A program made the position numbers and the translations under genes. Below are positions 24,966 through 58,763 of a DNA stretch of 64,000 nt, one piece after another. The stretch's first letter is position 1. Every line of letters begins with the position of its first letter. The DNA comes from Eukaryota sp. TZLM1-RC (lineage: Eukaryota; Protista; Metamonada: BaSk clade): contig JAUPSS010000004.1 in NCBI GenBank assembly GCA_040285825.1, positions 682,001-746,000 on the forward strand. The letters are read 5' to 3'. The notes under the pieces were generated by a model, which saw nothing but the letters and a program-made list of their open reading frames with translations, was not told the DNA's origin and made no database searches.

Positions 24966-25099
24966 CAATAAAAACACAGATATTCAAAAAAAGAAACAAA
25001 GCTATGCATTCCCTTAAAAATATAAAATACAATTCTATTTTGCCAAAAAATGCGATCGAATATTTTGCCAGTTCTATTTTTGACAATTGATGAAAAATC

Positions 25100-27055: not shown

Positions 27056-27124
27056 TGGCTAGCAGTAAAAAGTGTCAAATAGTAGTAACCCGTTGAAATT
27101 ACTGGAATAGGAAGACGAAATGAA

Positions 27125-27870
27125 TCAAGATGATCTTTTCAAAACTTGAGGTCATTCATTTCCTTTGATGTACAGATCCGCAACATCAACCATATCCAGA
27201 ACACCATTGACATTACGATTCCATAGATATTCACACTTCTTGCAAGTGAGTAACCCTTGTTCTACGACTGTTGGAGTCTTGCTCTCCTGTAAGGTCTTGG
27301 TTTAGATACTCTATTTTTCTTTACATTTTCACCCTCTTTTCCATCGAGTGCACATACATTACATCAAGAACTTGTTCTATATTCATCCAGCAGCAAGATA
27401 CGGAAGTTGCGTTTTTTTAACATCTTTCGTTAACCAACATTCTTTGTTGGTGCTTGATGGTTAAAATTGGTTTGCTTGCAATCAACCATCACTACATTGT
27501 TATCTCTGGACCTCCAAATTTATTTTCAAATTCATTCATCCATTTTGCTTCAAACCTCTCTGTGGTCATGAATCTTTGCAGTTTCATGACTCTCAATCCT
27601 TTATCAAAGTACAAAGCTCCAGCATGGTTAGAACAGTTGTGTTTTGCCTAGTTTAAGAATTCTTCATGATCTAGAGTTTTCCTTGAATATTGTTTTAGTT
27701 CTTCCCATTCCTTCACAGCATTGTTTCCATGATTCTTTAACATCCTTCTAGAATTTTTGGTGGTCTTTGTTCAGAGTTTCTCTTCGACTTTGAGGAGCAG
27801 TGAGCCTCTTAAAAGTAAATTCCTTTAGTTTTGTGTTCTTATTGTCATTTGGAGCAGGAGGATTATGGTG
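27125..27870 (-). pseudogene. Fanzor (eukaryotic TnpB/Cas12-like) remnant, C-terminal half
   Basis: Manual translation across frameshifts: KLQRFMTTERFEAKWMNEFENKFGGPE...NFNHQAPTKNVG*RKMLKKRNFRILLLDEYRTSS*CNVC...PRPYR...QGLLTCKKCEYLWNRNVNGVLDM...GNE*PQVLKRSS*. This covers RuvC-II, the Zn finger and RuvC-III. Confidence 0.85.
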
Positions 27871-28150
27871 TGAAGTCTAGAATCATTTGTTTTGTCCTTT
27901 TTGTCTTTTTCTTTCTGTCAATAATACCTCTATTTCTTCCTTTGTTTTCTTCATGACACCATACGTACAATTCTAGTTTTTGAATTGTATGCAACAAAGG
28001 ACATGTTGTGTGTTTGTGAAAAATAAGGATGAGAAAATGATGAATTGGTTTAAGGAGGATGATTCTTTTTGCTGATGTAATTGATTTGTTCTTTTAATTG
28101 ATGTTGCAACAATGTATGTTAAATTAGGAACAATTCCCCCAAACAATATG

Positions 28151-28217
28151 TAGTCAATAAAAGTCAATTTAGTCAGTAAAAGTCAATGCGGTCAATAAAA
28201 GTCAACGTGGTCAATAA
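28151..28217 (+). repeat. Short tandem repeat of GTCAATAAAAGTCAA-like units
   Basis: About 3.5 imperfect copies of an 18-19 bp unit. Confidence 0.7.
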
Positions 28218-28519
28218 ACTGATTTTCACCAAAGACAGGTCTCACTGACAACTCCAACCATTATTCATTTAGTGGTTTCATCTTAGTCAAATTGGTATAG
28301 ATTTTTAACAGTTCCAATTTATGGAATACTGAAGAGTGAAGAAATCAATAAATAATGTTTGTGCATGAAATGAAGAGAAAGCTGAAGAAGGGTATTCTTA
28401 GTGAGATCATTCACATTGATCAAGAGGGAAATACCCAATATTCACAGATTTCTCATTTGAAGGTCAACTATCGCCAACTAGCATCAACACTATGAAAATG
28501 GCTACAAAATAGGCTGGAG

Positions 28520-30790
28520 ATGCAAACAGAAGTAAGTCGAAAATCTTCAAAATCTGTGATGGATGGCCTCGACATCTGGCCATCTAGCTTCAATTGTGAC
28601 ATTCATGGATCACTCTTCATCCAACCCGTTGTTCTTGCTTGTGGACATTCATTTTGTAACGTCTGCATTACTGATTGGATCCAACGAAATCCAACCTGTC
28701 CTAAATGCAGGTCGCCTGCTCCAGGAAGCTCCAAGGTACGAAACTATGCCCTAGAACAAGTTCTTTTCGACATAACCAAGCCAAATATCATTCAATTGGA
28801 TGATCTACAAGAACTATGTTCACTTTCACGTTCACCCAGAGCATCTATCAAGTCTGCAATGCTGAATGGACGACCAGTTGTTTTAAAGACTCCAACTTGC
28901 ATCGATTCGCTCGCACAGGCCGAAATTCGTGAAAACATTGTTCAACTTTATCATATTATATCGTCATTGAAAAGCCCTCCTTGTATTGTCAACATTCTTG
29001 GTGTTACGTTAGATCCACCAGGACTGGTTACCGAACGTCTTTCATGTTCCATTGAGTGTATGATGAATGAAGAACACCACTTTTCCAATGAAGAAGCTCT
29101 TGTTGTTTTTGAGGACATTGCATCAGCATTACTTTGTTATCATGAGAATGAATTGGTTTATATGTCTCTATCCCCTAGCACTGTCTTTGTTAAAGTTAGA
29201 CACAACAAGATCATTGGAGCCAAACTTAGTCCTGTTTTTAGCACCCTTTATATGGGTGATTCCTTGCCGGAATCTGCTGAGACTGATGAGGAATCTATCT
29301 ACACAAGCCCTGAAATCATCTCAGGGGAGTGCATTAGAGCACATACATCGAGTGATGTTTTTGCTTTTGGGGTACTGCTGTTGATGATATCAACCAATCA
29401 CAATTTTGCTGTTGGGCAAGATGGGAAAGCTGATTTTTTGGGTTCAATGATGAGCTTGCTCTCAGATCCTTGGAAAGCTTTAATAAGTTCAATGGTTAGT
29501 TATGATATTGGCAGTAGACCTTCAATGGAAAATGTGTTAAATCAGTTGAGTTTGTTGAAGGATGTCCAAATTATTGAACCAGTAGATGATGCTGGATCGA
29601 ACTCTGGGTGTCTCAAGAGACGACTTGAATTAGAATTTGAAAATTTGTCAATGGAGCATGAAACTATCATGAAAGAAAAGAAAGCAACTGATGAGCAAAA
29701 TCAGCTACTACAGAGATTCATTGATAATTTGACAGCAAGGCAGGTTCAGTATCAAGGAATAATAACTGGACTTAGAACAGAGAATTCTTCTGCAATTGCT
29801 GATGCTGAACCAGTGGCAGATGAGCAAGTTGTTGATCTTCTCATGGATGAACGACAGAATTTAACTTGTGGAATGCGACTTTTTACTAGATGTTTTCGAC
29901 TTGATAATGTCATCGAAAGTTATCGACAACAAATATCAGATCTGAGCATCGATCTTTCAAGGACAAGAAATAATATCACAGCATTGGAGCGATCACACAA
30001 GGAAAATAGTGAAGCATATTACCAAAAAATCGAGGAGATTGGAAGAGTTTTACTAGAACAAGATCAGCTGCTGAACACTCTAAACACAAATTATAATGAA
30101 ACTATGAAAGTCAACAAGGATCAGTTGGAGAAGCTTTATGAAACTATTCGACATAAAAACAACTGTATACTGGAGCAGGATCAAACAATAGAAAAGTTGA
30201 TGAAAACAATTCAAATATTTAATCAGCAACCCCAAAACATTATTCCACGGCCAAGTTCACCGATTATTGATCCGATCATGAAAAATTTAGTTGCTACACC
30301 ACAAGTTAATTCTAACTTTGTAGCTCATTCCAATGCAGAGTGTATAATGAATCGCGTTTATTTTTCTAAAAAGATGAAGCATGTTGATGTCAGAGTTGGT
30401 TATAGAGCAAAGCATGCTTCAGGAAGAGGAGTTGTTCTGAGTAAACATGCATTTGCAACTAACAAGCTCCACAAATTCTCCATCAAATTTATTCAAGGAG
30501 AAGTAGATATAGGCATTGTTCCAATTTCTCAGGTTTCACTCGATTTTTCCAGCACACGGGCTTCTTATCGAATATTCTCTGATGGGGGAATGACAAATAA
30601 CTTGACTGGAAACAATGTAGTCTGGGACAAAGGACATGTTGTTACCATAACCATTGATCTGATTGAGAATCAAATTGTTTTTGGTGATGGAAAAGATATT
30701 ATTTGTTATGGTTCTCTCTCGCAATTGACGAATGATCAGTGGTATATGATGGTTGAGCTTGGTGGTGGAAGTGTTGTGGAAATCGTGTAG
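28520..30790 (+). CDS. RING finger - pseudokinase - coiled coil - SPRY-like protein
   Basis: RING motif CDIH...CGHSFCNVCI...CPKCR. Kinase fold has VVLK but YMSLSPSTV replaces HRDLKPxN and there is no DFG. Coiled coil at about aa 365-570. C-terminal SPRY-like strands. Confidence 0.88.
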   Translation: MQTEVSRKSSKSVMDGLDIWPSSFNCDIHGSLFIQPVVLACGHSFCNVCITDWIQRNPTCPKCRSPAPGSSKVRNYALEQVLFDITKPNIIQLDDLQELCSLSRSPRASIKSAMLNGRPVVLKTPTCIDSLAQAEIRENIVQLYHIISSLKSPPCIVNILGVTLDPPGLVTERLSCSIECMMNEEHHFSNEEALVVFEDIASALLCYHENELVYMSLSPSTVFVKVRHNKIIGAKLSPVFSTLYMGDSLPESAETDEESIYTSPEIISGECIRAHTSSDVFAFGVLLLMISTNHNFAVGQDGKADFLGSMMSLLSDPWKALISSMVSYDIGSRPSMENVLNQLSLLKDVQIIEPVDDAGSNSGCLKRRLELEFENLSMEHETIMKEKKATDEQNQLLQRFIDNLTARQVQYQGIITGLRTENSSAIADAEPVADEQVVDLLMDERQNLTCGMRLFTRCFRLDNVIESYRQQISDLSIDLSRTRNNITALERSHKENSEAYYQKIEEIGRVLLEQDQLLNTLNTNYNETMKVNKDQLEKLYETIRHKNNCILEQDQTIEKLMKTIQIFNQQPQNIIPRPSSPIIDPIMKNLVATPQVNSNFVAHSNAECIMNRVYFSKKMKHVDVRVGYRAKHASGRGVVLSKHAFATNKLHKFSIKFIQGEVDIGIVPISQVSLDFSSTRASYRIFSDGGMTNNLTGNNVVWDKGHVVTITIDLIENQIVFGDGKDIICYGSLSQLTNDQWYMMVELGGGSVVEIV

Positions 30791-31761
30791 ATGAGCAATT
30801 GGCTTTTCAACAATTGTCTGTGTCATGAGATTATTAATTCAACAGCACATCTTCAGATATTGGTCTGAATAATAAATAAATATCAATAAATATCATAGTT
30901 TAACCAACCTTCAGTTGGTCATAGTAAATTTCATTTTTCGTTCAACAAAATTGGGTAATGAACCCTATAATCTGACATTTTACCAAGTCTTTCAACAAAA
31001 ATGCATCATTAGTTAGCGTTTACATTTTTGAAAAGATATCTTATTGGTCTATTTTCAGTGTTGATGTTTGAAAATCTAAACTTGAAACTTGTAAATATAA
31101 CCACCTCCACTGACATGATGAGCATATTTCAGTAGAGAGAGCTGATCAAGATTTTTCCCACTGGTGTTTAGGTTACACGTGTCAGTTTTAGAATTCCAAT
31201 TAAAGTTCTTGAATGAAAATTTCATCAAATTTTTGTTATCCAAAATATGATCAAGACATCAAAATGTATCAACTCTACTGATTAACTCTAATATCTGATT
31301 CGGAATATGTTTCATTTTTCAATTATTTCGATCATGAAATTATTCAATGTGATTAAGATTATAATATCCAAAATGTTATTTATTTTATTTATTATTTCTT
31401 AATTTATGTTGTTGTGAATAACCCATTAAAGCACACCGCACGCACACTGTCTTGATCGAGAAGTGGTGATTACGCTAACGTTAACATTAACACTAATTAA
31501 ATTTTTCTGAAAGAATAGCCAAATAGAATAATGAAAGTATTTGTTGACATTATTGCTGAGTTTTTGAGTTGTTCACGTCTGAATTTGAACTGATCAAAAG
31601 AAAAGCTAAAAAAGAACAGATGCAAACTATAAAACTTCTATTTATCAAAAAGTTGAGTCTAACTAAAACCAAATATTTCGTTGTAGAAGATTAGAGTCAA
31701 AATAGTCAACAATCAAAAAAATAAAAAAATAGCCAAGATATGTTTCATTGACAACACACCA

Positions 31762-31796
31762 AACCCTAACCCTAAGCCTAACCATAACCCTAACCC
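31762..31796 (+). repeat. Interstitial telomere-like (CCCTAA)n, degenerate
   Basis: AACCCTAACCCTAAGCCTAACCATAACCCTAACCC. Confidence 0.6.
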
Positions 31797-31958
31797 AAAT
31801 TATAAAATCAAAAAAAAGAAAGCTATGTTTTATTAAAAAAGATACTGAAAATACTGAAATATAAATGTGAAAAAATGAATCATAGAGATAGCAACAAAGA
31901 TAATATGAATTAAACTAATAGAAATTGATAAGCATATTCCAAACTGTTTTAAAAAAAC

Positions 31959-32597
31959 CTACAATAAATCATGAATTAAATTCCAAAGAAATCTGGAGAA
32001 TTCTTGATTTTTATTGAGCTCTACCAAAAATTTGAACTGTTTGACAGTTTGAACAGCTCTAGGGCCCCTTACTTCCCTTACCTTGGCTATACTTTCATCA
32101 ACGCTAAACCTTCCTTCCCCCAACACCAACACCAAGGCAGCAACGACTACCCCTGTCCTTCCCAATCCCCCTTGACAATGAAGCAGTGGTTTGATGTTGC
32201 TGTTACGGTTAAGGTTAAGGTTAGGGTTAGGGTTGAAAGTGAAAATAAGGGAAGTAATTTCTTTGAGTTGGTGAGTGGAAGGTGGATGGCCATCCTCAAT
32301 TTCAAACAGAAAGGGGGTAATGTTAATGGATTCATAGCTTGATAAGAGGTTGTGAACGTTGTACTTTGACAATTCTCGCTTCTGAAGCAGTATAATGACA
32401 TGTGAGAAAGAGTGGGTTTGTATAGTGGCCAGGTCTGTGTTGAGACAGCGAGTGTAACCAGATCGTTGACACCCAGGAAGTTCCGTGAGACCAAGACGCC
32501 ATTCACGAGGTAATTTAGTACTGATTGTATGGAAATCAAAGTAGTCAATTTTCAGAGGAGAGGTTGTACAAGGTGTGGAAGAAGTGGTCATAATCAA
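31959..32597 (-). CDS. CDKN3: CDKN3/KAP-like dual-specificity phosphatase
   Basis: LGLTELPGC...RCLNTDL...ELSKYNV, IEDG, catalytic HCQGGLGRT, and RGPRAVQTVKQ. Confidence 0.85.
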   Translation of the reverse strand: MIMTTSSTPCTTSPLKIDYFDFHTISTKLPREWRLGLTELPGCQRSGYTRCLNTDLATIQTHSFSHVIILLQKRELSKYNVHNLLSSYESINITPFLFEIEDGHPPSTHQLKEITSLIFTFNPNPNLNLNRNSNIKPLLHCQGGLGRTGVVVAALVLVLGEGRFSVDESIAKVREVRGPRAVQTVKQFKFLVELNKNQEFSRFLWNLIHDLL

Positions 32598-33009
32598 CTA
32601 CTCACTGTTTGTCTATGAAGCAAATGCTGTTCAAGTGGAGGAATAAGTATCGTATCATCAGCGTAATTCCAAAATCTGTAATAAAACTTTTGATACATGA
32701 TTTGTGAAAGTTGTATTTGGTTTGTTCAAATGACAATAAAATAAAATAACCACCAACCTGATTCAAATCTTGTAAACTTACCAGTCTCTTATTTTGATGA
32801 CCTTGACCCTGATGATTATAGTGAAAAAAATGTAGTCTTTGGTGATCTTGGAAAGAGAGATTTAATTCAATTTGGAGCAAAAACAGATCAATTTGATGCA
32901 AATCCACTGAGAACATATAAATGAATGAGGCTAACATATGAATAGAAACCACCAACAAGTGTTACAATTTTGTGATAGATAAAATAATGGTCATAGTGAA
33001 GAACTGTGA

Positions 33010-33686
33010 ATGACCATTGAAGAATGGAACTCATGGTTACGTGAACATGATTCAAAAATTGTTAATAATCCCGAATTTAGAGAATTTATGTTGGATAAGT
33101 GTAAACATTACAATGAAACCAAACAATTCTAAGAATTTTTTGGTCAAAGTTTACTTTTATGGAAGATACGTAATATCTAGTTAATGTACGTAGGCAAAAA
33201 AATGAAGAAAGCATTGTTAATAACTTATTAATAGCATATAGTGGTTTAGACAAAATAGTATCGTGTATTGGGGACTTGGGTCGAAAACCAATCAGTATGC
33301 TCAAACATAGTCCACCAACAACTTCCAATAGATGGATTAGTTGTTTTGTTAGACAAAAATTTTCATACTGTTGTAATTGATGAAAGCCATACTTCTTCAA
33401 AATGTCTTTATTGCTTTGAAAAAGTATTTGAAACGACGATTAAAACAAAAAATAAAATACCTAAAAGTGCTGAAAAACACCGTTCAAGTCTCCACATGAT
33501 CTATTGGACTGTAGAAGTCACCATTGTATCAATGATGCGAAATCACGATGTAAAAAACCCGAAAATAGAGAAGTAATCAAGGCAAGGTAATGGAAAATGA
33601 ACAAGATGGCTTGTTTGAATACGTTGAATGTATTTGATCACCGGTTGTCTGGTGAAGAGGGAAGAACTGTTTATCTTAGAAATTAG
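33010..33686 (+). pseudogene. Fanzor remnant, C-terminal half
   Basis: MTIEEWNSWL...RRQKNEESIVNNL...IGDLGRKPISMLKHSPPT...VIDESHTSSKCLYC...LLDCRSHHC...WKMNKMACLNTL...GRTVYLRN*, with frameshifts and stops. Confidence 0.82.
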
Positions 33687-34967
33687 TTTACTTTTACTGA
33701 CTAGTACAATCTAGTCATAGTTGACATATCAGTCAAAATATAAAAAAATATCAAACAATTTTTCCTACAGCAATCAACAAGAAACTGAGATAACAACACC
33801 TTTAGGCCACCGGCCATCATGTTGCTATCACTCTACTCCATCAGAAAAACATATACTGGACTCTAGAGCAAAAGATGCGGTATGAGCATTTCAGAGTTTG
33901 AAGTGCTAAATGTTTACAAATGGTTTAGCATTGTAGACTTTGAAATAAGTAATTTGTTCGTCAACAAAATGCACCTAAAAGCAATTATTCCTCTTGCAGA
34001 AACTTACAAAACAATATTCAAATACAAAAATTATATTTGACAATGACAATTGACACTAATATTTCGTGCTTTTTTAATGGTTGTCTTCTACGGTATCTCA
34101 ATTCATCGGCGCTGTTAATTCACAAAACAAGACTTTATTCATTCTTAATTCATCTGGATCCATTTGGACAAAATAAGCTCAGGTCTTAACTCAGTCACAA
34201 GCAAGGGAAAATCAACATATTGATTTGTGTCAGAAAGTAAATCGCAGTAAACATCATAATGATCTAGGTGATGAACTAAAAAGTAAAATTGAATTAACTG
34301 TGCAATTAGATCTACCGTGTTTATATATAAATAAAAATCAAACTTTTCACTGTGTTCAAAAATAATTTTGTTCAAACATTTTTGAAAGATAAATTATTAA
34401 TCATTTCATGTAATTTGCACTCATTCTTATAACGCAACAATGCCAAACTTTTTTTCTGAACCATAAAAAACACTTGTAGAAAAACTAAATTTGGATATTC
34501 AACTTATAACAAAGATTTTGAAAATACTGTACTGAAACATTACTCAACAGTTACAAAACAATGTAGCCATAAAATAGATAGATTTATTGGTAACAACCGT
34601 AAGACTGAAAATTGGGCAGTAAATCATTGATGCATTTGAACATTTGAAAGCGAATGAGGAAAAGTATATTCTAAAGTGATAAGAACGTATTAGTGAAAAC
34701 ATTGATGAATACGTTCAAGCCACTGAATAGTTGTTAAATAATTGGTTTCAGATAGTTTTATTTAGTTGATTTTCAATAAATTGGGGGTAACTGAAAAATG
34801 TTTGAGCCTTGTTGGGTCGACTATCTTTACAAAAAAGATTATTGTTTATTTCAGAAAATTGATAATTGCCATTGACTCAAAAAATCATAACAAATAGAAT
34901 ATCTTACAAGTGTTGTCAAGGTTGCAAGTCTACCCAAGATTTTGCAATAAGATGGTTGGCCAAATGG

Positions 34968-35002
<35 letters not shown>

Positions 35003-35019
35003 GTGATTGATTGATTGAT
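34968..35019 (+). repeat. (TGAT)n microsatellite
   Basis: About 13 units. Confidence 0.9.
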
Positions 35020-35479
35020 CATTCGAACTGTGCTTCATTGTTTTGTATCGTTCCTTCCTTTACTCCAACAGAGTTACTGTTGTGAGCTAATAGAAGTATG
35101 TGAATACCAATGTGCCTCAAATTTAATAAAATGCCTCAAATTCATCTATATAATTTGATGAATCACTGCGAAAATGGTTCACTAAATAAATTTCAATAAA
35201 ACTTCATTTTCAAAAAAACTTATAAGGAAGCCTTAAGAAACTAGATCTTACTTGGCTTTTTGGGTTGCAAATAGCCATTCATTAGTTATATAACAAAGTA
35301 ATTCTCTTTGATTGTTACTAGCTAGGTACTGATGTTTCTACATTTACTTAAAGGAAAAGAAAGAAAAAATCACCAATAATCACACAATCAATCAACCTAT
35401 AAAACCTGGGAACTTGCAATCTAAAATTAACCAAATGGATGCATATTTGACTCTTCATAGTTACGAAAAGTATAAATCA

Positions 35480-36520
35480 CATACTTTTCAGCTGAATACT
35501 GAATCCACCATGGAAAACTAGATAATTCAAATAAATATTCATTCTTGATTAGTTTAACAGATTGAACTAAACCTTAATTAATAAGTTTTGTTGGGGATAG
35601 GGCAAAATGTGATAGAGTGTATTTGTTAGATTTAATCAATTGAATAAACTTCAGAGAAGGAAAGTTTTGTTCAGTGATATTGGCAGGAACCACACCATGA
35701 ATTAACAATTCCTTCAAGTTGGGTAATTGTATTTTAATATTGACAAGATCAAGCAATCGTACTTCCAATCTAACAATGTATTGAGGTAAAGTTATTCGTC
35801 CCTTTTATATTCTTTTTAAGATATTACGAGATAATACCACCAAATCATTCAATGAAGTAAGATAGCTTAAATCAACAACATCAAGGGCTCAATCTTCAAA
35901 TACTGGCTTCACTAGTGAACTGGGTAATTATAAGCTCTAGACATTTTTGTTTTGATGAATGCATCAAGTTTGGAGACCTTGGTTGAAATCTCGACCTTCC
36001 ACAAAGCTCAACAACCTCAACATTTGGGGTAAATGACAGTAATTGTTGACAGTAGATTTGTTGAATAATGACAATAATTGTGGATCATAATCAACTTCAT
36101 CATAGTAAACATCAAGTTTTTTAATTCTAGTATTAATTACTTTAGGGCCATTATAATCAGTAGATAATTGCAATTGTAAATCACAAATATTTTCATCCAC
36201 ATTTAAATCTTGAGGATCTTTTATATATTGAACACCATTAATCACTTGTTTAGCAAATTTAGCCACTTTGTTGCTGATTAAACATTTGGTATAGAATCTA
36301 GCTTTTGTATAAGGATGGTTGCTAAACATGTTTTTCCAAATATTGTAAATATTCAATAAAAATTAATTTGATCAGACCACTAAACATTCGATTAAGAACC
36401 TCTTAAATGAAAAGCGCCAAGTATCTCTGGTTTCAAATACTTTGACAGGTTGTGGTTGATCAATCAAATCACCTGTACCTAATTGACCTTGATAGTTCCT
36501 TCCCCAAGCCCAAAACGTAT
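35480..36520 (-). pseudogene. Decayed tandem paralog of the RCC1/LRR gene (3' part)
   Basis: HPYTKARFYTKC, LQLQLSTDYNGPKVINTRIKKLDVYYDEVDYDPQLLS and QLPNLKELLIH are shared with 37614-39859. Frameshifted. Confidence 0.88.
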
Positions 36521-37156
36521 GTTTGAATAACATCTAATTTCACGACTATTTGCTATCCTCAAGGAATTTCATTTTGAAGAATGAATCATGTCCATCACTC
36601 GGACAACAAATTTATTTCAATTTGGTTTATTAGCTTTTCAAAAACTTATCTAAATAGGAAAACTATAATCAAGGTTTTTATTCCAGGAAGGCAGAACAAT
36701 ACAGAGAAAAATATGCTCAAATCGCTGATTACACTGAGATTGGCTTATGCTCAAATGAAGTGTTAGATTATGTCGTTTTTTAACAAAAACCAAGTTTTTT
36801 TACCATCTTTTTGCAATAACATGTCATTTTGCAAAAACGGTCAACTTATGTGACCGATTAATAGATCACAGCTGGCATCATTTCGAAAAGTTGTTAGTGT
36901 AATCCAAGAATTTGCATTTTTTAAAATATAAGTAATTGAGGTAACTTCCACAATTATAAAATGAAATTGATTAAAATAACAAAACTAGTTGAATGCAGCT
37001 TCACCATTCTTTGCATCAAATTATGTCACTTGTTGTCTCAAAAATCAGACTTCCATTATCCAAGATTGAATGAAACCCAAATGGTAGCCTAACAACCTAA
37101 TAGAATGAATGTTGCTGGAAGCAAAGCAACAGCTGAAGTTCCTTTTAATTAATGCA

Positions 37157-37326
37157 GAAGAACAGAACTTCCTGACAATTTAAAAGCTCCTTTTAGACCA
37201 GTTGCTATGATAGTTCCTGATTATTCTTTGATTTCTGAAATTGTATTAATGTCTTTTGAAGGGTATTTTAAAGCCAAACTACTAGCCCAAAAGCTGGTCT
37301 ACACCTTTCAACTTGGTCCTCAACAA
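37157..37326 (+). pseudogene. Isolated dynein heavy chain AAA1-region fragment
   Basis: [53 protein letters not shown] matches the dynein heavy chain consensus [22 protein letters not shown]. Confidence 0.88.
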
Positions 37327-37613
37327 CGAAGACTGAAGAAACCACTCAACTAACAGTTGGCTTAAATTCAGACTTCCATTATCCAAGATCCCTGAATGAA
37401 ACTAATAAACTAACAGCTGGCCTTAGAGAATAAAAAAAACAATTTTCCTCCATTTATGCAACAAAATCACCAAAATGACAAAAAACAGAAACATATAAAT
37501 TCAAATAATTCACCATTTTCCTCCTTAACTTAACCTGCATTTTTCAAGACTAGAGCGCATGTTGAGGATTGTGTGAGATTTCATTCATTTATAAGAAATT
37601 TTGGGGACGCAAA

Positions 37614-39859
37614 TCATATTGTACAACACTCAGCAAGCAATTCACCGTCCGCAACTATTTCACCACAACTATTGATCAACTGCCTACTGCTTGGATACTG
37701 AATCCACCATGGAAAACAAAATAACTGAAATAAGTATTCATTCTTTACTAGCTTGACAGAGTTGATTAAATTATTATGAAATAGTTCTGTTGGAGATAAA
37801 AAGTTGGTGGCATTTTCCAGTGCGTCTTCACCAAGTTTTATTAATTGAATGAATTTCAAAGAAGGAAAATTGTGTTCAGTGATATTGGTAGGAACATTGT
37901 AATGAATTATCAACTCCTTCAAGTTTGGTAATTGGACTTCAATATTGACTGAATTTCCTAGATAGACTTCCAATCTATTAATGGATTGAGGTAAATGTAT
38001 CTCCCCTTGCAATAACCTCTCTGACAGTCCATTTAAGGCTAAATCTGACAACAGTACCAATTCTTTTAATGATGTAAGATAGCTCAAATCATCAACATTT
38101 GGATCACCAATATCATAACCTCTAACAACTAACTTCACTAGTGAAGTGGGTAGATAGTCTTTGTTACAAGGGTAGTCCAGCTCCAAAAATTTGAGATTTG
38201 ATAAATGTTCCAGGTGTAATGGAGGAATTGAATTTGACTTCATCCATCCGTCAAACTTAACAACCTCGACATTTGGGAAAAATGACAATAATTGTGGATC
38301 ATAATCAACTTCATCATAGTGAACATCAAGTTTTTTAATTCTAGTATTAATTACTTTAGGACCATTATAATCAGTAGATAATTGCAATTGTAAATCACCA
38401 ATACTTTCATTTAAATTTAAATCTTGAGGATCTTTTAGAAGCATCTTATTTTGAATTGGATGCTCATTAAATACTTCTTGAGCAAATTGAGCTACCCTTT
38501 TACTAATACCACATTTGGTGTAAAATCTTGCTTTAACGTATGGATGATTACCAAAAAGCTTTCGCAAATAATTCAAATATTCCCAATAAACAAACTTAAT
38601 TAGACCACTAAACATTCTATCCAATGGTTGTTTTGGATAATGAAAACTGCCAAGTATCTCAGAACCAAATACTTTGACAGGTTGAGGTCGATCAATCAAA
38701 TCACCTGTACCTAATTGACCTTTATCATTCCTTCCCCAAGCCCAAACAGTGTTTTTGTTGTAGGCAAAAAGGAAGTTTTCGTCAACAGAAACACCTTCTA
38801 TAACAGTGAGAGCATCAATACATCTTGGTTTCTCACTATCTTCATAAAACTCACTTATTCTGCTTAAATCACCCCAAACAAAAACTTTACCATCACCATT
38901 AGTTGAGACATAATAATAATAATAATGGAAATCAAAACAATCAATACCATAATAACCAACAATATTAATAGGGTCATGTAGCCCAAAAATTTTGGTGGGT
39001 TTGGATTTGAAATGATTAGTTCTAATAACTCTGTCAAACTTCCAAACCTCACCATAAATGTCTACAACAATAATACAATGTCCATCAAACAAAAAAGAAC
39101 CCTGGATTGGTTCTTTGGTTGAAATATGATCTAATACTGGAATTTTGGTAGTAGAAACTGATGTTTCAGCAAAACAAGTAGAGCCTTTGAAATTGACGTT
39201 AAAAACAATGGTAAAACAAAAGCTTTCATCAACTGCAACAAATGCATCACCAGAAACAGAAATACAAATAATATTATTTAATTCTTCAATTAATTCAAAT
39301 GATTCACAATCTCCCCACTTGACAACTTGGCCTTCGGGGGTCAAAGCAAATGAACAATTCTCGCCACGATAAACCTCCTTAATATTATAGGGAATGTCTA
39401 ATGGGGTGATTAATAGTGGTTCAAAAAGTGACTGAGGTGTTTCCCAATCAGGACTCCAGCCTAAAACATATACTATGCCTTGAGAAGAGAGGGCAAGGGA
39501 GTATTCACGTCCAGCTGAAATCGAAACAATATCAGTCAAAGGAGTTTTGATTGGTGCTTTGATGCTTAAAGGTCCAAAAGGAAGAATTTTGCCATAACAA
39601 TTGTCCCCCAGCCATATACTTCACCAGAATAGGTCAGGAGAAGGGTGTGCTGTTGATTGGTAGAAACATGTTTAACCCCTGTATCTCGGTCGGTCGAAAG
39701 CGTAGTGACAGAATCATTGGTTTGTGGAAGGGATTGAAATGTGTCCCAAGCATCGGGCAAGCAAGCGGTATGAGGGGTCAAAGAATCTGTTAGGGTGTGA
39801 GTGGGATGAGAAAAAGAAAAGGTAGAAGTGCCAATGTCTCCGTCCTGGTATTGAGTCAT
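37614..39859 (-). CDS. RCC1/BLIP-II repeat protein with C-terminal FNIP/LRR-like repeats; one frameshift in a G-run near 39607
   Basis: HTLLLTYSGEVYGWG/DNCYG, ISAGREYSLAL, WAWGRNDKGQLGTGD and LPTSLVKL repeats. Adding one G to the GGGGG run joins the two ORFs, consistent with a sequencing error. Confidence 0.85.
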
Positions 39860-39930
39860 TGCTACAGATGATATCTATAGACCAGAAATAAGTATACCTT
39901 TTTGGTATGTGGAGGGTCTGAGTTTTGGAA

Positions 39931-40130
39931 TTAAAGGTTGTGATATTTGTTTGATCCATCAGCGGTGACTTGTTGAAGGTATACCAGTTTATCTTCTCTT
40001 TTAACATGTGCTTTCATCACTGCCAACAAATTCAGTGAATCAGTTCGATCTCTATCGCACAAACCTTCCCTTGATTTAAACATGACAAGCCCATGAAGTA
40101 GACATTTCATGCCTCTTATTTGACTTAGGA
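39931..40130 (-). pseudogene. Fanzor extreme C-terminal remnant
   Basis: LLHGLVMF...LCDRDRTDSLNLLAVMKAHV...LVYLQQ matches the Fanzor HGLL-x-C...NRDxNAxxN...RPxYL region. Short and degenerate. Confidence 0.6.
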
Positions 40131-41019
40131 TTTCTTTAAGAGCAATTTTGACGATGGAAGTATTTGACTTTGACATCAAAGAATCAGGATTGTCTCCATT
40201 GGTTGAGTTGTTACAGTATTGATGTTGATGTTTCGATATTTGTAGTAGTTCATTATAACAAATAAGTGTTTGTTTCTCAGTGATGGTGAATAGCACGATA
40301 ACTGACAGAAGTGACAAAGTTCATTTAACAGAAAACAATGCAACAATGGTGATGTATTAAGAAGATGGTACCAATGAAATTGCGAACAGGACAAATTTTT
40401 GCAAAAACATTTGTGGATGGACTCAAATCTGCAAAATGGAAAATTCAGGTGATCATTTGATCATTCCATGATTATAATTTTCAGAATTTACCTATCAATA
40501 CATTTACCTTCAACATGAAACTACTGGTATCAGATACTGTGAATACAACCGTCATTATGATGCTTTTTCCAGACCATCAATTACATCTTTCAGCTCAATT
40601 TTGGAGCAGTTTTTTGTCAAACAAAGCATTTATTTCAACAAAACTTTCAGTACTTGTCCAAGACCAAAAAACCAAAAAGCTGCCCAAAGAATATCATTGG
40701 AACCATGCATACAGTAAGGGCCCTGTTTAAATGATGTTATTCTAGTATCATTTTACATAGCTATTGACCTTATACATGACTAACACTGAGTGGTCATGAA
40801 AGTCTTTATGTATTAACATCATAGCAATTGTTGGTTACTTTGTAGAGGATAGTGTTGGTGATCTGTCTTCATTGGGCTTTTTACAACAGTGAATTTGTGG
40901 CATTTTTGGATTTCTCCATCATCACATTATTCTGGTGAAAACCTTGAAACACTACCAGATATCCTCGCTGTAATGACTCCTGGCAAGCTAGTTAAAGCCT
41001 GCCATTGTCGTGGTTAGCT

Positions 41020-43450: not shown

Positions 43451-44529
43451 TTGGGAATTGTCATTTATATTTGAGTTTAAAAACTCAAAAATTAACCGTT
43501 AAATCGTTAATTTTTATTCTCAAATCATTTATCGATTGATCCATTTCAACCAGAGTTTGGCTTAATTCTTGAGTTGTCTGATTTCAATCAATAATAGAAG
43601 TTCAGAAATCTTTATGTTATTGGCACAAGTACTAAAAATTTTGTTCCTTTTGAGTACAATTTTATTGTTCACTCAATATTCAAATTTATTTAGTCATTTG
43701 ATTTGAAAAAATCATTCGACCTGCAAATATTGCGAAATCTCACGCACTTTTAACTTAATTACAAGTTTTCTTGGCTTTGAGCACTCAGCTGTGGTTTGGT
43801 TGAATATTTTGTTGGGTAATGTATCTGTAAAAAATCAAGTGTCACAATTGATTATTTGCTTGTATAACGTGACTTATCAAGAATGAACCACTTTATGACA
43901 AATTTTGCCAGTGGAGGCAATGAATTTTCTCTCAAACTTTTTTTATTTTAATAATTCGTTTTTAATATAATTCATTGAGCTTGTTATTCAAATTTACCTA
44001 AGAAATTAGGATTTAGAATCAACGTCACATTGGTCCAATCGTGAAAACTTAGTCAGTATGTCAAATAGAGAGGGGGTGGCGTTACCTGTTTTATTATAAT
44101 AAGCCAAATTAAGCATCGTACCAACAAAACTATTGATGCAAGTTAATTCAACTTTGCAAAATCAATTTGTTTATGTACTATTTTCATCTATATAATGATA
44201 TTTGGGGTATTTCAAAATATTGAGGTACAAGTCAAAAATTAACAAAATGTGTTGTATTTGTATTAATTGTTCAAATATAACTTCCAGGCAAATCAGTTTT
44301 ACAATGGGAATAAATTGCAACCTTGTTTTGCATTGTGCAAAATGATTCGTTTGTAAGTCATTCATAATGCACCATTTCGATGAAAATTGAAGTGATCATT
44401 TTACTATTCTACCATTCTACCATGAATTGTATTTATGACTGATACAATGTTTAACCCATTAAATTCAGGGTTGTCTTTAAAATTATCAAAAACCTGTTTT
44501 ACTTTTGTTTTTATTCCAGTGCACAATAT

Positions 44530-45330
44530 TTTTTCTGCGTGTTGCTTAAGCAGGTTCAATGAAAAAGCTAAAAAGATTTTATTACCCTTTCAATATGGTA
44601 TAAATACTAAAGATGGAGTCTCTTCAGCGATTTTTGCTACTGATGTCTTATTTCGTCAAAATGAATCCAATGTTTGCATGTCATTGGATTTTAGTAATGC
44701 TTTCAATTCACTAAGTCGTCGCAGTATCCATGGTGCTCTATTGCAATATATGCCGGAATTAATACCATATTTTCAATCAACATATTGCACATATTCTAAT
44801 TTACATTTTGGTGATAGCATTTTGAGTTCATCAAGTGGCGTAAAGCAAGGAGATCCGTTAGGACCTCTTTTGTTTTGTTTGGCCATTCATCCTATTCTAC
44901 TGCAAATTCAAGAGATGTTTCCTTCGCTAAAAATGATTGCATATATGGATGATGTTGTGCTTATTGGTGATTTAAATATTGTGAAAAAAGCAACTGTATG
45001 TTTTAAAGAATTATTTACCAAAATTGGTCTCCGACTTAATTTACTTAAAAGTGTTTTGTTATCGAATTCTCCAGTTTCCACAATAATTGATGATATTGAA
45101 ATTCAAGCCAAATTATATTCAATTGATGCTATTCGTCATTTGGGTTCATTTTTAGGAAATAATGATGAAATTACCAAAAAATTGTTTGAAAAGTTGAACT
45201 CAATTTCTGACAAAATTGACCGAATGATGAATTTAGATATAAAAAAACACATCAAATTTACCATTATAAGACTGTGTTTTAGTTCCAATTTTAATCATAT
45301 ATTTCGATCTACAAATCCTCTCGTCACTAG
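44530..45330 (+). mobile_element. Internal reverse-transcriptase fragment of a CRE-like non-LTR element (family D)
   Basis: PFQYGI, LDFSNAFNSLSR, GVKQGDPLGPLLFCLA, AYMDDV, GLRLN..KS, RHLGSFLG. Confidence 0.9.
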
Positions 45331-45374
45331 ACCTTCACGGATTCACGGATTCAATTTGCCATTATTAATAGATT

Positions 45375-45514
45375 ACCGCGGTTTTTCAATCGAATTAGAG
45401 AAGCTTTAGCTAGACAGCAAGCAAATCAAGATTTTGTAGAGGAAATCTTGGTTTAATGATAGTCGTCCCATTAGTTATGATTTAATTTAATCAAGTGTGC
45501 AAATTCAATAAATA
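45375..45514 (+). repeat. Dispersed repeat with a shared 3' end (also reverse complement near 3890-4030 and 13520-13650, and at 57286-57343)
   Basis: Shared core TGATAGTCGTCCCATTAG(T/C)TATGA...GTGTGCA, followed in three copies by TTCAATAAATA. Confidence 0.8.
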
Positions 45515-49880: not shown

Positions 49881-49949
49881 TTCTGTTTAAAATTTTGTAT
49901 TTCCGGTGACGAAATTGCATTACACTATTTTATTAAACTCAAACTACTA

Positions 49950-51659
49950 CTACTGTTTCATTTGTTTACAAGTTTTCCCAACTTTTAAAGAAAGCAAGAA
50001 AGAGAACAACAACAAACCACTCATCACCATAAAAGCAACATCACTCAACCCCAAATCATTGAAAACCGCATAAATGTTGGGTCCCACCACTCCAGCCAAC
50101 CCACTGGATAAGAAAATCCAAGGGAACACAGTTGCAAAGTTCTCTTGACCCCAGATATCAACTAAACAAACCGGCATGGTCACATACATTGAACCATACA
50201 AACCACTGATAATGAAAGCAGAACCAATAAAAGTAACTGGATGAGCCGCAAGCCAGATAAAGCCCAAAATAAGCACGGATTGTATAATTAAAACCAATGA
50301 CAAAGTGTTGGATGAACCTATAACATCAACAACTTTTCCTAACGCGATTCTACCTATTCCATTACCAGCATTAAATGCTACAGAGGTCGCTAAAAATGTG
50401 AAAAACTGAATTTCGTCATCATCATAGTTGTTGTTGGAGAGAGCCTTGACCGGATATAAACGAAGACTGCCCAAAAACATAAATCCAATAGAAGTTCCAA
50501 AAATCATTATTGTAAAAGCTAGCCAAAATGTTTTTGAAGCGAAAAATTGCTTAATCGACATGAGCTCTTCTTTAATCTCTTCTTTTTTCTGACACTTGTC
50601 AGTTTCTTCCACCAAAATTTCATCTTCAACAGTGACTGGTACATCTACAGCAAGTTCACTAAGCTCTGTCACTGAAACAGTACTTGTCACTGATCCCTTC
50701 CTTTCAGCTTCATACTCTACAGTGGGGTCTACAGTCGAACTGATGACGTCACTGTTGTCGTCACCAACACTATTCAGTTCGGTTTCCTTTGTATTTGTTT
50801 TTGTCTTTTCTTCTGTTACGTCATCCTTTTTTTCGGAATTAGGAACCATAAAGATTCCAGCCAATAGGATAGCAATGGGGGCTGACAAAGAAAAAACCCT
50901 AAATACAACAGAAGGTGGATTAGTCTTTAATAATTCCTCCACAATTGCTGACCAAACTAAAGAACCGGTTCCAAAAACACCTATGGTTAGCAAGAGTTAG
51001 AAAAAAGTGAAAAAAGGTCTAATTTTGGAAACTTTGATGACATTTTTGAGAAATTGAAACAATATTATATCAAATTATTTTTGATAGTTTTAACAAGCGC
51101 AAATTGAAGCAAATTCCATTAATTTAAAAAAGTCAAAACATTATTCAAACCAAGAAAGAAAAAAACATACCGACTGAAATACCAGTAATTAACCCTTTAT
51201 TCTTTGGAAAGTAACTCATAGACACCCTCAAAGCCACTATATATGAAAAACCAATAGCAGCGGCAGCCATGACACCAGCACCTAGAGTTACAAATAAAAC
51301 ATCACTTCCATCGTTCAAAGAGGCAACAGAATATCCAGCAAACATTACCAGGCCAGAGGTTGTAGTGAGGAAGCGATATGAGTAGCGACGAACAGCGATA
51401 CCCGCGAGAATGGGGAAGATCCCGACCACAAGTACAACACAGGACCAAACGCGCTGGGAGACAGCAGCTCGCCATCCATAGTCATTGACAAGATGAGGAA
51501 TCAGCTGATGTGAGAGGAAGGAATGTGACGGACCGTGGGGAAAGAGTAGTTGATACCCAGGGATAGTTGAAGGAAGATGAAGGCAATGACTACAATATAC
51601 TTTCTTTTGATAAGAAGAGATCGAATGGCATTCTGACTGAGAGGTCCCTTACTGGACAT
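49950..51659 (-). CDS. MFS transporter, OFA/OxlT-like (oxalate:formate/monocarboxylate) family; introns 51505-51533 and 50981-51170
   Basis: Multi-TM pattern with large central loop. Motifs LGINYSF, YFPKNKGLITGISVG|, NGIGRIALGKVVDVIG, DIWGQENFA. Both introns restore the frame. Confidence 0.88.
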
Positions 51660-51819
51660 GATGGTGAAGGCTGGGGAGGAAGAGGGGAGGTTGAGGTTGA
51701 GGTTGATACAACCTTGTGAGATCAAATTGATAGGTCAAAAAGACATATTAAAAAGACTGTTGTTGACTAGTTTTTGTGATTAAAAATGATTTATTATCTC
51801 AACAACGATTGGACTAACA

Positions 51820-53211
51820 ATGGTGAAAGATACTCTTGATCTCAAGATCCTGAATGGTACGATCGTCACTCCTACTGAATCGTATGTAGGTGATGTAGGT
51901 GTCAAAGATGGTAAAATCACCATTATTGGTGAGTCTCTTTCTGATGTTGTCTCTACTGACACTGTTGATGCCTCTGGTAAACTTATCCTTCCTGCTGCTA
52001 TCGATTGTCACACCCATTTTGAAATGCCCTTTGGTGGAACAGTGAGTCGCGATGGTTACGAGTCGGGCTCTCGTGCTGCACTTTCTGGTGGCTGTTCATG
52101 TTATATTGACTTTGTTATTCAAGGTAAAGGTGAATCTCTCCGTGCCGCTCTAAAACGACGACAAGACTTGGCTGCCACAAAGTCTTGCTGTGACTATGCG
52201 TTTCACATTGCCATTACCGACCTGAACGAGTCTATTCTTGCTGAGATGGAAGAGATTGTTCAAGAAGAAGGTGTCAATAGCTTCAAAGTGTTCATGGTTT
52301 ATGATTTTGCTGTTGATGATGGTGTCTTATGCCAAGTTCTCCAAAGAGCTGCTCAAGTCGGAGGCCGTGTCTCTATTCATTGTGAAAACAAACCCTTGAT
52401 TGACTATAATGTCAAGAAGTTCCTCTCCGAAAACAAGACATCTCCATACTATCACTATCTCAGCCGTGATGAAGATGTAGAATCTGAAGCAGTGAAGAGG
52501 GTAGTTCACTTCGCAAAAGCGTTCAAGGCACCAATCTACATTGTCCATCTCGCATGTAAAGACGGGTTGAAAGAAGTAGAAAGAGCCCATGCCGAAGGGT
52601 ATCAAGACATTGTCATTGCCGAAACCTGTCCCCAATACCTTGCTTTCACCTCTGACGTTTACAAGCGAGATGATGGCCAGAACTTTGTACTATCACCTCC
52701 TATCAAGGGCCAAGAGTCCCAAGATGCACTCTGGGATGGTATTCAACGTGGAATCATTCGAACAGTAGCGACTGATCATTGTTCCTTCCTCTCTGAAGAA
52801 AAACTATGGGGAAAGAATGACTTCTCCAAGATTCCCAATGGTGCTGGTGGTATTGAATTGCTCTACCCTTATATGCTCAGTGAAGCCAATAAAGGAAGAA
52901 TTACCTTTAACAAAGCTGTCGAACTTTGCTCCGCCAATGTAGCTCAACTGTTTGGTATCAAGAACAAAGGCAGTATTAGAGTTGGTGCTGATGCTGATAT
53001 TGTGATTTATGATCCCTCTCAAGATTTCGTGGTAACAAAGGATAAGCTCCATGATGATAATGATCACATCATCTATGAAGGAATGGAACTCAAGGGCTGT
53101 GTTTCAATGACCTTTTGTCGTGGTGTTTTGGCATTTAAGGATGGTGAGTTTATGGGAAAGTCCGGTTTTGGCCGCTTTGTCAAACGTGTTCCTCTCAGTA
53201 GTTCAAAGTAG
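51820..53211 (+). CDS. hydA: Dihydropyrimidinase / D-hydantoinase
   Basis: IDCHTH metal motif, SFKVFMVY (carbamylated Lys), IHCEN, YIVHL, ETCPQYL, TDHCSF, KIPNG, GADADIVIYDP. Intronless. Confidence 0.95.
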   Translation: MVKDTLDLKILNGTIVTPTESYVGDVGVKDGKITIIGESLSDVVSTDTVDASGKLILPAAIDCHTHFEMPFGGTVSRDGYESGSRAALSGGCSCYIDFVIQGKGESLRAALKRRQDLAATKSCCDYAFHIAITDLNESILAEMEEIVQEEGVNSFKVFMVYDFAVDDGVLCQVLQRAAQVGGRVSIHCENKPLIDYNVKKFLSENKTSPYYHYLSRDEDVESEAVKRVVHFAKAFKAPIYIVHLACKDGLKEVERAHAEGYQDIVIAETCPQYLAFTSDVYKRDDGQNFVLSPPIKGQESQDALWDGIQRGIIRTVATDHCSFLSEEKLWGKNDFSKIPNGAGGIELLYPYMLSEANKGRITFNKAVELCSANVAQLFGIKNKGSIRVGADADIVIYDPSQDFVVTKDKLHDDNDHIIYEGMELKGCVSMTFCRGVLAFKDGEFMGKSGFGRFVKRVPLSSSK

Positions 53212-53869
53212 CTGTTAATTTGATTTGTATCAATAAATGTGCTTGTGATTGATTGGATGTGTTATCTTTGACCACATATTTTGACTAAATTTCTGAATTT
53301 GCAAAAATTTGAAATAACAATTTAGCATTGGATTTCGAAATAAAGCAAAATGTGATTTTCGTGTTCGGTTTTGGTCTAGAAAATTGCGGTATAGCTAACC
53401 TCTCCTTGCACACTATGTAGCTGAAAAATTGCAATTGCAGTTGCAACTGAGATGTAAGGTATTAATTACTGAGTAAAAACAAAATGAGTATCTTTAAAAA
53501 CAAAATACAAGTGTCGACAGATTTGTTTTATCTCGACAACAACGGCGGATATAAGATTGGAACTGTGAAAGAACTGGTAATGTTAGAGAAACAAAGAACA
53601 ACATTTTGGATGCACAAAAAGTGCATGATTGAAAAGAACGTGTTTGTTATTGAAAGTACAATGGTGCCTCATTGGTAAATACAAATACAAGATCAGTAAC
53701 CAATTGGCTTCCATTATCTGTTCTTGAAGAATCTGTGTTTATTCCCTGTGGAAATGAATTAACTCTCGGAACTCCAATATTTACTCTCCTATGTGAAAAT
53801 CTTGTAGACAAAGGTGTGCAATTCAGTCAGTAATTTGTGTTCCAATGATTTCAAATATAAACATTTATT

Positions 53870-54938
53870 TTACAAAGCATCCATCAAATCTAACAAATCT
53901 TGATCTTTTTCTTCCGTCTCCACATCAAAACTAGATAACAACTTTGCAAAATGCTTACTTTGTTCACCTACCGTACCAATACTTTCATTTACAATTTCCT
54001 CCACTTCAGAAGCCTCAACTACAGTATTCGAAAGATTTAAAACAACATTACCACTATTATTACCACCCAAACTCTTTGCCAAATCATTAAAACCTCCTAC
54101 ATTGAGGTTATTGTTATGCGTGTTTTGCGTGTTTGGTTTGGCGTTACTAATACCATTCTGGTTTAGGGGAGTTGGTCTATTCTTGTACAGATTGCGACCA
54201 TCACAGTATCGACAATCATGAGAGTTCACAAACGGGTTATTGAGCTTCATCTGGGGGTCAAAAATAACAGACTTTCCTTGACCCATAATTTTGATAGTTC
54301 CAGGACTTCGACACGTGTCATGACGATGATCTGTGCTAGGGATTACGAAATAACCACTATTTAACTGCAACTCTCCTACTAAAAGCAAGGAAACTCTAGC
54401 CTTGTGTTTAACTAAATAATTTAGCAAATTCTTCCTTATCATACACATTCTCCATGGTGAGGTTTGTGACTGGAAAGCCATAAGTCGGTTCTGAACGTCC
54501 TCCACACGGTCGGAAATGCCTGTACGTGAGGCAATGTCCATCATGTCATTGAGATGACGCCGTGTGACGGCAAAGATGTCACGGGGAGACAGCATTCGGG
54601 AAAGTTGGAATTTGAAAGTCATGAACTGTGGGTCAGGAGAAAGGAAAAGGTTGGCATACCATAAGGTCCAGGAGGCGGTCCATGGAATCAGAATTGAGTT
54701 TCATTATGCTTGAATGAGCGATTCGAATAAAAATGGACTTGATAGCATTAGTGTCATATAGAGGTTGTGGTACAAAAAGGTCGTCAAGAAAATCGGTGCT
54801 GAATGCTGCATTGATGAGATCTTTGAGAACACGGTCTGCTTTGTCTTTCTCAACAGATTGAGCCTCAAGACGTTGTTCAATGATGTAAACCATCTCACTG
54901 GCCATGTTTATTATGAGGAAGGGTAGTTCATTATTCAT
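53870..54938 (-). CDS. OSCP1: OSCP1 (organic solute carrier partner 1) homolog; intron 54626-54659
   Basis: LPFLIINMASEMVYIIEQRLEAQ...IAHSSIMKLNSDSMDRLLDLM|FMTFKFQL. A 34-nt intron restores the frame. Confidence 0.93.
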
Positions 54939-55005
54939 GTTGTTGTTACTAATGTAAATGGGAAATTCCCATAAGTACACGATCAATTTTCGTGTGCAAT
55001 AATTA

Positions 55006-55638
55006 CTAAAACTTTCTACTACACAGATACTGAGGCCTTTCATTACCACTCATTCTAGCTTAAGTAATTGCAAACATATTCAGACAAGCCAGCTTATTTC
55101 TATTGAAAAGCTTTGTTGAGCCTTTGTTACTGATTTTGCAACTCTCACTATTACAAGCTAATAAACCATGACATGTAGTAACTGAAATCTTTTCTCTTCT
55201 ATAGAATCTGGTTTTGGTAATCTCAAAAACGTAGCAACCTTTTTTAAAAACACAGGACATTTTGCTGAAGTGAAAGCTTCATTAATCATCAAATACTTCA
55301 AATCCATCTCTCTTCAGAAATTGAATCCATCCAATGCCTCTAGTAGGTCTCTGATGTTTCAAATTCTTAGCACCTTTTTTACCATAATCACCCATTAGTA
55401 TTGAAGTGTCTTTTGGATTGCCAAACTGCTGCACAAAATTTTTTAACAACCAACATTCAGTCTTTTGCTTGTGAATAAAAGCTTGCATTTTATGAGTGCT
55501 CCACAAGTCAAGACTGTAAAAGTCAATTGTCAAAAAAACTTGCCGAAGTTTGGCAATCACAAAATTGGAAAAGTCGATTAAAATTGTTGAATTGGCAGCA
55601 AACGCAGATAATTCGGTGTTTGCATGTTCGATTGTCAT
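55006..55638 (-). pseudogene. Fanzor remnant, C-terminal half
   Basis: KMQAFIHKQKTECWLLKNFVQQFGNPKDTSILMGDYG...KHQRPTRGIGWIQFLKRDGFEV / MINEAFTSAKCP...CHGLLACNSESC...FNRNKLACLNM...GNERPQYLCSRKF*. Confidence 0.88.
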
Positions 55639-58758: not shown

Positions 58759-58763
58759 CGTAG

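Follow-up and report, generated by a model that had tools for sequence, protein, structure and literature searches.

The window analyzed here is a 64,000-nucleotide stretch of the Eukaryota sp. TZLM1-RC genome (GenBank assembly GCA_040285825.1, contig JAUPSS010000004.1, positions 682,001 to 746,000 of the forward strand). It is eukaryotic, gene-dense DNA of 34% GC and contains five broken copies of Fanzor1, an RNA-guided nuclease of mobile elements, which we labeled A (27.1-28.0 kb, minus strand), B (32.7-33.7 kb, plus strand), C (40.0-40.1 kb, minus strand), D (55.0-55.6 kb, minus strand) and E (40800-40862, plus strand). In A, B and D an asparagine stands where the RuvC-III motif has its catalytic aspartate, and the initial annotation had taken this recurrence as a sign of a nuclease-dead lineage. 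Comparison with database proteins indicates instead that the asparagine is almost certainly inherited; B and D belong to a Fanzor1 clade in which it is fixed, whose intact members are likely to be active nucleases and whose full-length gene models carry a predicted exonuclease.

The 5′ part is gone from every copy. Copy A (27056-27988, minus strand) is a decayed element that has lost RuvC-I; its RuvC-II motif, DEYRTS, lies at 27387 (Glu codon 27384-27382) and its RuvC-III motif, WNRNVNGVLD, at 27223 (Asn codon AAT, 27214-27212). Copy B (32712-33686, plus strand), also decayed, is alone in keeping RuvC-I, as VVFGDLGKRD with the Asp at 32844-32846, a motif uncited in the initial annotation; DESHTS follows at 33379 (Glu codon 33382-33384) and WKMNKMACLN at 33591 (Asn codon AAC, 33600-33602). 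The coding remnant of copy D (55012-55638, minus strand), from which RuvC-I is likewise gone, is interrupted by one stop and two frameshifts and reads NEAFTS at 55283 (Glu codon 55280-55278) and FNRNKLACLN at 55107 (Asn codon AAT, 55098-55096). Copy C (39964-40116, minus strand) is a short canonical Fanzor1 tail, CDRDRTDSLN, with the Asp codon GAT at 40050-40048, and copy E (40800-40862, plus strand) is a 21-codon C-terminal scrap of another family of the asparagine clade (76% identical to the database protein P0015) in which the catalytic codon is lost. The motifs reported earlier for A to D are therefore all present, RuvC-II Glu is retained in A, B and D, and only C keeps the RuvC-III Asp. 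The caveat that all copies are pseudogenes also holds: A, B and D are interrupted by stops and frameshifts, and C is a short tail. Database Fanzor1 proteins matched the window in tblastn with E values of 9e-101 (D), 6e-62 (B), 2e-12 (A) and a weak 1e-3 (C), so the matches are not due to chance.

A search with the longest open frame of copy D returned 10 proteins out of 39 candidates, all named Eukaryota sp. TZLM1-RC. Among solved structures, a profile of eight such proteins matched PpFz1 and SpuFz1, and a 12-protein profile matched PpFz1, SpuFz1 and GtFz1 (all passing E 1e-13) and nothing else to E = 1. The best of these matches were SpuFz1 and PpFz1 (PDB 8gkh and 9cf0; E 4e-43 and 1e-43). With HMMER, a full search matched 931 proteins at E 0.001 or better; among the best 150 of them, the top group maps to three genomes, TZLM1-RC, TZLM3-RCL and GEM-RC1, the first two of which we take to be skoliomonads too. 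The name Skoliomonas sp. GEMRC is listed among free-living metamonads (PMC11316075). A structure model of P0191 is of low confidence (mean predicted local distance difference test score, pLDDT, 52; 12 sequences), and the fold search with it, which ranked PpFz1, SpuFz1 and GtFz1 first, is a lead only. By sequence, the window copies and their database relatives belong to Fanzor1. The "RD" of the RuvC-III motif of Bao and Jurka is absent, with RN in 50/51 clade proteins, which does not bar membership because the accepted member GtFz1 also has RN.

The clade spans about ten families, with representatives that are 28-62% identical. Grouped at an identity of 90% or more, its proteins fall into clusters that have as many as 11 members, on many contigs. 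The RuvC-I Asp, which belongs to a DPG/DPN-type motif (DLG in family B), is present in 41 of the 43 clade proteins that cover it; all 41 motif-matched proteins have Asp, and the exceptions are two degenerate rows with Asn and Glu. The RuvC-II Glu, C-terminally shifted and followed by TS, is found in 53/55 clade proteins. Among family representatives, the CPxC of the C4 zinc finger never varies, and the second Cys pair is almost as constant.

At RuvC-III, the motif is reached by 51 of the 86 clade proteins; Asn occupies the position in 50 of them, and P0173 alone has Asp. Outside the clade, 118/132 Fanzor1 rows reach the motif, with 111 Asp, five Asn, one Gly and one Glu. A FastTree phylogeny was built with the catalytic column removed from 161/188 rows (those of at least 110 residues that reach RuvC-III, plus the window copies), and it recovered a single clade of 41 rows with a support of 1.0 and Asn in 40 of them. 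An IQ-TREE phylogeny, likewise free of the catalytic column, of 58 hand-picked rows (12 from the clade, two of the A family and 44 of the 132 others), in which the bootstrap had not fully settled, gave the clade a support of 100/100 and placed B beside P0177 and D beside P0004. The clade with this support comes from three related protist genomes and includes B and D, and its intact open reading frames (ORFs) carry the Asn; the Asn thus marks a real lineage.

Independent pseudogene decay, with a chance Asp-to-Asn change in each copy, would need only one G-to-A substitution per copy in a window of 34% GC, and only one relative was found for copy A. Background change is far too rare for this. At Asp-majority columns, Asp-to-Asn occurs in 12/227 cells (5.3%) of family D and 1/126 (0.8%) of family B, whereas Asn occupies RuvC-III in 8/8 family-D rows and 7/8 family-B rows. 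Intact ORFs also carry Asn, in 50 of 51 clade proteins against a background of about 1-5%, as does the relative of A. The fixation of Asn relative to background, the trees and that relative therefore refute decay in the case of B and D and make it unlikely in that of A; as a general account of the three copies it is hardly credible. Copy A has one database relative, P0219 (one of two candidates, 78% identity), which reads WDRNVNA and so has Asn. The two branch outside the main Asn clade in a poorly resolved part of the IQ-TREE tree, and an approximately unbiased (AU) test in which they were forced together with the main clade did not reject that grouping (p-AU 0.65, against the quick tree only). 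An independent Asn origin for copy A was our first reading, and it was given up as the preferred one since the AU test does not reject a joint origin; the reading of A as a decayed Asp-type copy was set aside because P0219 has Asn. The observation that three divergent copies share the same Asn thus stands as evidence of an inherited lineage marker, but the three are not one homogeneous group: B and D share a clade and A lies apart.

The public sequencing runs listed as containing the window sequence are two, both of DNA and from a single sample, and each has a small share of it; no RNA run is listed. Among the contigs of one public sample that are listed as aligning to D, none has another letter at the Asn codon, and the stop codon of copy D reads differently at full depth. 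One 1127-nt contig with gaps at both frameshift sites represents a D-family copy without the frameshifts and stop of the window copy.

In the alignment, the clade Asn shares a column with GtFz1 WNRNVAG (chain residue 1068) and SpuFz1 WNRDMLS (residue 1000). We take these residues to be GtFz1 N658 and SpuFz1 D606, assuming protein lengths of 690 and 638. The natural Asn of Guillardia theta GtFz1 (N658; PDB 9cer) is compatible with DNA cleavage, and N658D lowers activity; in SpuFz1, D606N cleaves better than the wild type (PMC11423790). Like the clade, GtFz1 has a D-E-N triad, the RuvC-I motif DPGKRD, and NRN in the same column. It is only distantly related (profile E 4e-14), the excerpts of PMC11423790 do not describe it as fused to an exonuclease or protease, and its cleavage has been shown where that of the clade is predicted. 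SpuFz1 has an extra RuvC-I Asn, N385, that is essential there (PMC13434818); because GtFz1 has DPGKRD at this position, the extra Asn is not needed for activity. Conservation of the RuvC-I Asp, the RuvC-II Glu and the zinc finger across 28-62% identity points to selection on a working site, and the same inference of function has been drawn for TnpB branches with conserved RuvC-III changes (PMC10691335). By analogy with GtFz1 and SpuFz1, intact members of the Asn clade are likely to cut DNA.

In their full-length gene models, clade members are polyproteins of 900-2000 amino acids, in which a 2A-like motif precedes one or two Ulp1-type protease domains, followed by a basic linker, a PolB-type 3′-5′ exonuclease and Fanzor1. 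P0190 (1846 amino acids) and P0195 (1905 amino acids) begin with a short leader and DGDVEANPGP; a pair of Ulp1-type domains, each with its His and Cys motifs, comes next, and a low-complexity, basic stretch leads on to the exonuclease and then Fanzor1. We take DGDVEANPGP to be a 2A ribosome-skip signal; it or a near variant occurs in 12/86 clade proteins. P0177, of the family of copy B (71% identity to B over 184 columns), has the 2A-like motif, the exonuclease and Fanzor1. An exonuclease profile built from five proteins matches 24/219 proteins, all from TZLM1-RC, TZLM3-RCL and GEM-RC1, and 16 of these also match the Fanzor profile. ExoIII and the D-E-N triad occur together in 14 proteins, and ExoI, II and III with D-E-N in 10. 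Five families are colinear across the junction that joins ExoIII to the first strand of Fanzor. Pfam PF03104 is matched at E 1e-13 to 1e-16 in most fusion proteins and 3e-8 to 7e-7 in some, and PF02902 (Ulp1-type) at up to E 4e-20; in the PDB, Pol delta (1e-5) and SENP8 (2e-6) are matched. The exonuclease is thus related to the proofreading domain of family-B DNA polymerases such as Pol delta, but in the clade it has no polymerase domain and is joined straight to Fanzor1, and the protease domains are related to SENP8/Ulp1 proteases. Pfam, PDB and Atlas concur on the identity of the exonuclease, with one further Atlas search scoring below 0.9. A search with the exonuclease region among proteins of 602-1918 amino acids, which reaches close relatives only, returned 5/3280 candidates, all from the same three genomes. 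The structure model of the exonuclease alone (mean pLDDT 36) is, like that of P0191, too poor for active-site geometry. In P0160 a DEAH-type helicase lies ahead of the exonuclease-Fanzor part, and P0009, in which a Fanzor piece is joined to a nucleosidase domain, is probably a gene-model chimera.

Copy A is flanked by a perfect 16-bp target-site duplication. Its upstream copy (27989-28004, minus strand) begins with the original ATG of a gene resembling tubulin-folding cofactor B (TBCB), and its downstream copy (27040-27055, minus strand) holds the present start codon of that gene; because the repeat starts with this ATG, A must have inserted at the start codon and duplicated it. Among 150 random pairs from the window, the longest repeat was 14 bp and none attained 16 bp, and no target-site duplication of at least 12 bp was found for B, C, D or E. 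The insertion separates the intact TBCB-like ORF from its former upstream region by about 930 bp. In this enzyme family the guide is the sequence that flanks the 3′ end of the element, and the downstream copy of the duplication would be the guide of A. Copy D ends 20 nt before the ATG (54938) of an OSCP1-like gene and C about 110 nt before that of an RCC1-like gene; B has no such neighbor. A, C and D thus end about 0-110 nt from a host start codon on the same strand, a proximity that, with four copies in a compact genome, does not show promoter targeting. The conserved 3′ end of the D family (54958-55011, minus strand) has two weakly predicted hairpins (z -1.43) and is a putative omegaRNA scaffold or right end. 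Sample contigs agree with D up to the hairpin that ends at about 54958 and then continue into several different 3′ flanks, as expected for a mobile element. Two short hairpins after the stop codon of B (33698-33735, plus strand; z -1.95, weak) are a possible remnant of an omegaRNA or right end. When the flanks of A and D were searched against the window, D had no second 16-nt match and A matched only its own duplication, so the supposed promoter-adjacent guides are simply the flanks of insertions, and apart from that duplication no second target for them was found in the window.

The proposal of a eukaryotic counterpart of the nuclease-dead, TnpB-derived TldR repressors, in which the Asn kills cleavage and flank-derived guides aim at host promoters, draws on the fixation of Asn throughout a clade, on the three of four copies (A, C and D) that end close to a host start codon, and on the match of the would-be guide of A directly behind the TBCB-like promoter. 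The last of these is the target-site duplication of A itself, and the flank of D lacks a second match. The identical Asn is active in GtFz1 and raises cleavage in SpuFz1, so the term nuclease-dead is unsupported. TldRs do share with the clade a TnpB-family fold with an altered catalytic residue; they are characterized by deterioration of the active site (at least two changes in the discovery screen), frequent loss of the zinc finger and association with non-transposon genes (10.1101/2023.11.30.569447). The clade, in contrast, has one conservative change among three catalytic residues, keeps the zinc finger and the C-terminal RuvC part intact, and is multi-copy on many contigs, with variable flanks and one target-site duplication. 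Every window copy is also broken, and we regard a TldR-like function as very improbable.

A different possibility is that RuvC is weakened or acts as a nickase, and that Fanzor is mainly an RNA-guided carrier that brings the fused 3′-5′ exonuclease to DNA or RNA targets. Five families of a single clade combine the Asn with the fusion, 10 proteins preserve all four acidic residues of the exonuclease, and GtFz1 is more selective for metal than SpuFz1 (PMC11423790). Asn is nevertheless found elsewhere without a detected exonuclease, in GtFz1 and in a separate Asn-triad group of four proteins from Coemansia fungi (P0033, P0075, P0093 and P0147; FastTree support 0.975), none of which matches the exonuclease profile, and the published Asn versions equal or exceed Asp versions in activity; such a carrier is unlikely, if plausible enough to keep in view. 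The fusion itself could be an artefact of gene prediction that joins ORFs of a larger Helitron2-like, virus-derived or retroposed element with an active Asn Fanzor. Every fusion comes from automated models of three assemblies, and some models are plainly chimeric (P0009, perhaps P0160). However, the last helix of the exonuclease leads into the first strand of Fanzor through the same short linker in five families that are 30-60% identical, and the spacing from ExoIII to RuvC-I is 428-484 amino acids in 14 proteins. On this sequence evidence the fusion is very probably real, and an artefact is improbable.

The analysis establishes the clade and the inheritance of its Asn, the copy numbers, the truncation at the 5′ end and the order of domains in the database gene models. 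On this footing we consider that the window probably holds dead, 5′-truncated, multi-copy Fanzor1 copies whose intact relatives have a D-E-N site that is likely active and are fused, in full-length gene models, to a predicted PolB-type exonuclease. In the model for SpuFz1- and GtFz1-type enzymes, the omegaRNA comes from the 3′ end of the element, the guide comes from its flank, and cleavage of the empty site aids persistence (PMC10432273). By analogy, an omegaRNA would be read across the 3′ end of the clade element, its guide would be taken from flanking host DNA, and the complex would cut the matching empty site on the homologue or sister chromatid, helping the element to persist. In the least certain step, the fused exonuclease would trim the 3′ ends of the break, and repair would copy the element in, a homing-type maintenance. 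Exonucleases promote the homing of phage introns, and action on the break is close to an even possibility but falls somewhat short of one; the main alternative is that the exonuclease trims the 3′ end of the omegaRNA. Through the 2A motif and the protease, the exonuclease-Fanzor part would be separated from the leader. Tentatively, and with slightly more doubt, such an element might be a transposase-less one that encodes a single self-processing polyprotein (2A skip motif, SUMO/NEDD8-type protease, proofreading exonuclease and Asn-triad Fanzor1), cuts a guide-specified site, trims the ends on its own and spreads in this way; its product would then be a natural RNA-guided cut-and-resect enzyme, comparable to engineered exonuclease-Cas fusions.

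Several points weigh against this account. The fusions are automated gene models of three assemblies, read as proteins and not against DNA. No exonuclease or protease sequence was found in the window copies, and among the proteins examined neither family D nor family A has a member with an exonuclease. Intact-element DNA was found neither in viral contigs (where one of the searches matched two stretches but gave no loci) nor in metagenome contigs, and no transposase was identified, with no full-length element DNA at hand to search. The activity of Asn versions is known from two other Fz1 proteins only, GtFz1 and SpuFz1, and the same D-to-N change gives no gain of activity in TnpB or Cas12 (PMC11423790). 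If A-type guides are used, the duplication at A leaves a guide-matching self-target beside the original flank, which is awkward for a fully active nuclease.

Other Fanzor1 elements resemble the clade in part. SpuFz1 and PpFz1 have the shifted RuvC-II Glu, the C4 zinc finger, multiple copies including partial ones and no transposase in cis (PMC10432273, PMC11423790), but they have Asp at RuvC-III, and SpuFz1 is a single ORF of ordinary size with 30-nt inverted repeats, which were not found around the window copies. The Fanzor1-carrying Helitron2 elements CRe-1, CRe-2 and CRe-3 of Chlamydomonas show frequent 5′ truncation, intact 3′ ends and, on truncated copies, variable duplications of 7-19 bp (PMC3627910), and Fanzor cleavage has been speculated to cause such truncated, duplication-flanked copies (PMC10288648). 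In the window all copies are similarly 5′-truncated, although a duplication (16 bp) was found at only one of four, copy A. No polyprotein architecture is described for the CRe elements in the excerpts of PMC3627910.

Elsewhere in the window, copies or pieces of a non-long terminal repeat retrotransposon lie at 5325-6536, 23692-25791, 44426-45409, 59595-63490 and 55651-55932, with RVT_1 matches at 44.4 and 59.6 kb; one piece, at high depth in the sample contigs, adjoins copy D where its 5′ end is truncated. Long (ATTT)n arrays stand beside retrotransposon copies at 58492-59621 and 62250-62868. Upstream of the duplication at A, three to four degenerate, TGAC-rich 19-bp tandem repeats occupy 28148-28218, and degenerate TTAGGG-like tracts in inverted orientation occur at 31759-31794 and 32202-32234, the second within a CDKN3-like phosphatase ORF. 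At 35400-39860 an RCC1-repeat gene region is tandemly duplicated with a spacing of about 2.2 kb and 74-95% identity.

The Asn triad itself is already known from one natural enzyme, GtFz1. In the literature searched, with unlabeled supplementary sequences and subscription papers outside its reach, neither a Fanzor-PolB-exonuclease fusion nor this polyprotein was found described, nor were Fanzors of metamonads. Term searches found no mention of the word exonuclease in PMC10530073, 10.1101/2023.08.09.552727, PMC3627910 and PMC10432273, and no natural Fanzor fusion is described in the exonuclease passages of PMC6338049, PMC13434818 and 10.1101/2025.08.27.672191. Asp-to-Asn at RuvC-III is no sign of a dead Fanzor1; here it is fixed throughout a clade of some ten families, which supplies dozens of natural Asn versions for asking whether Asn is favored in Fz1. 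If the fusion is true, it would be a natural two-nuclease RNA-guided enzyme, and would bear on how Fanzors serve their elements and on editors for which trimmed ends are needed.

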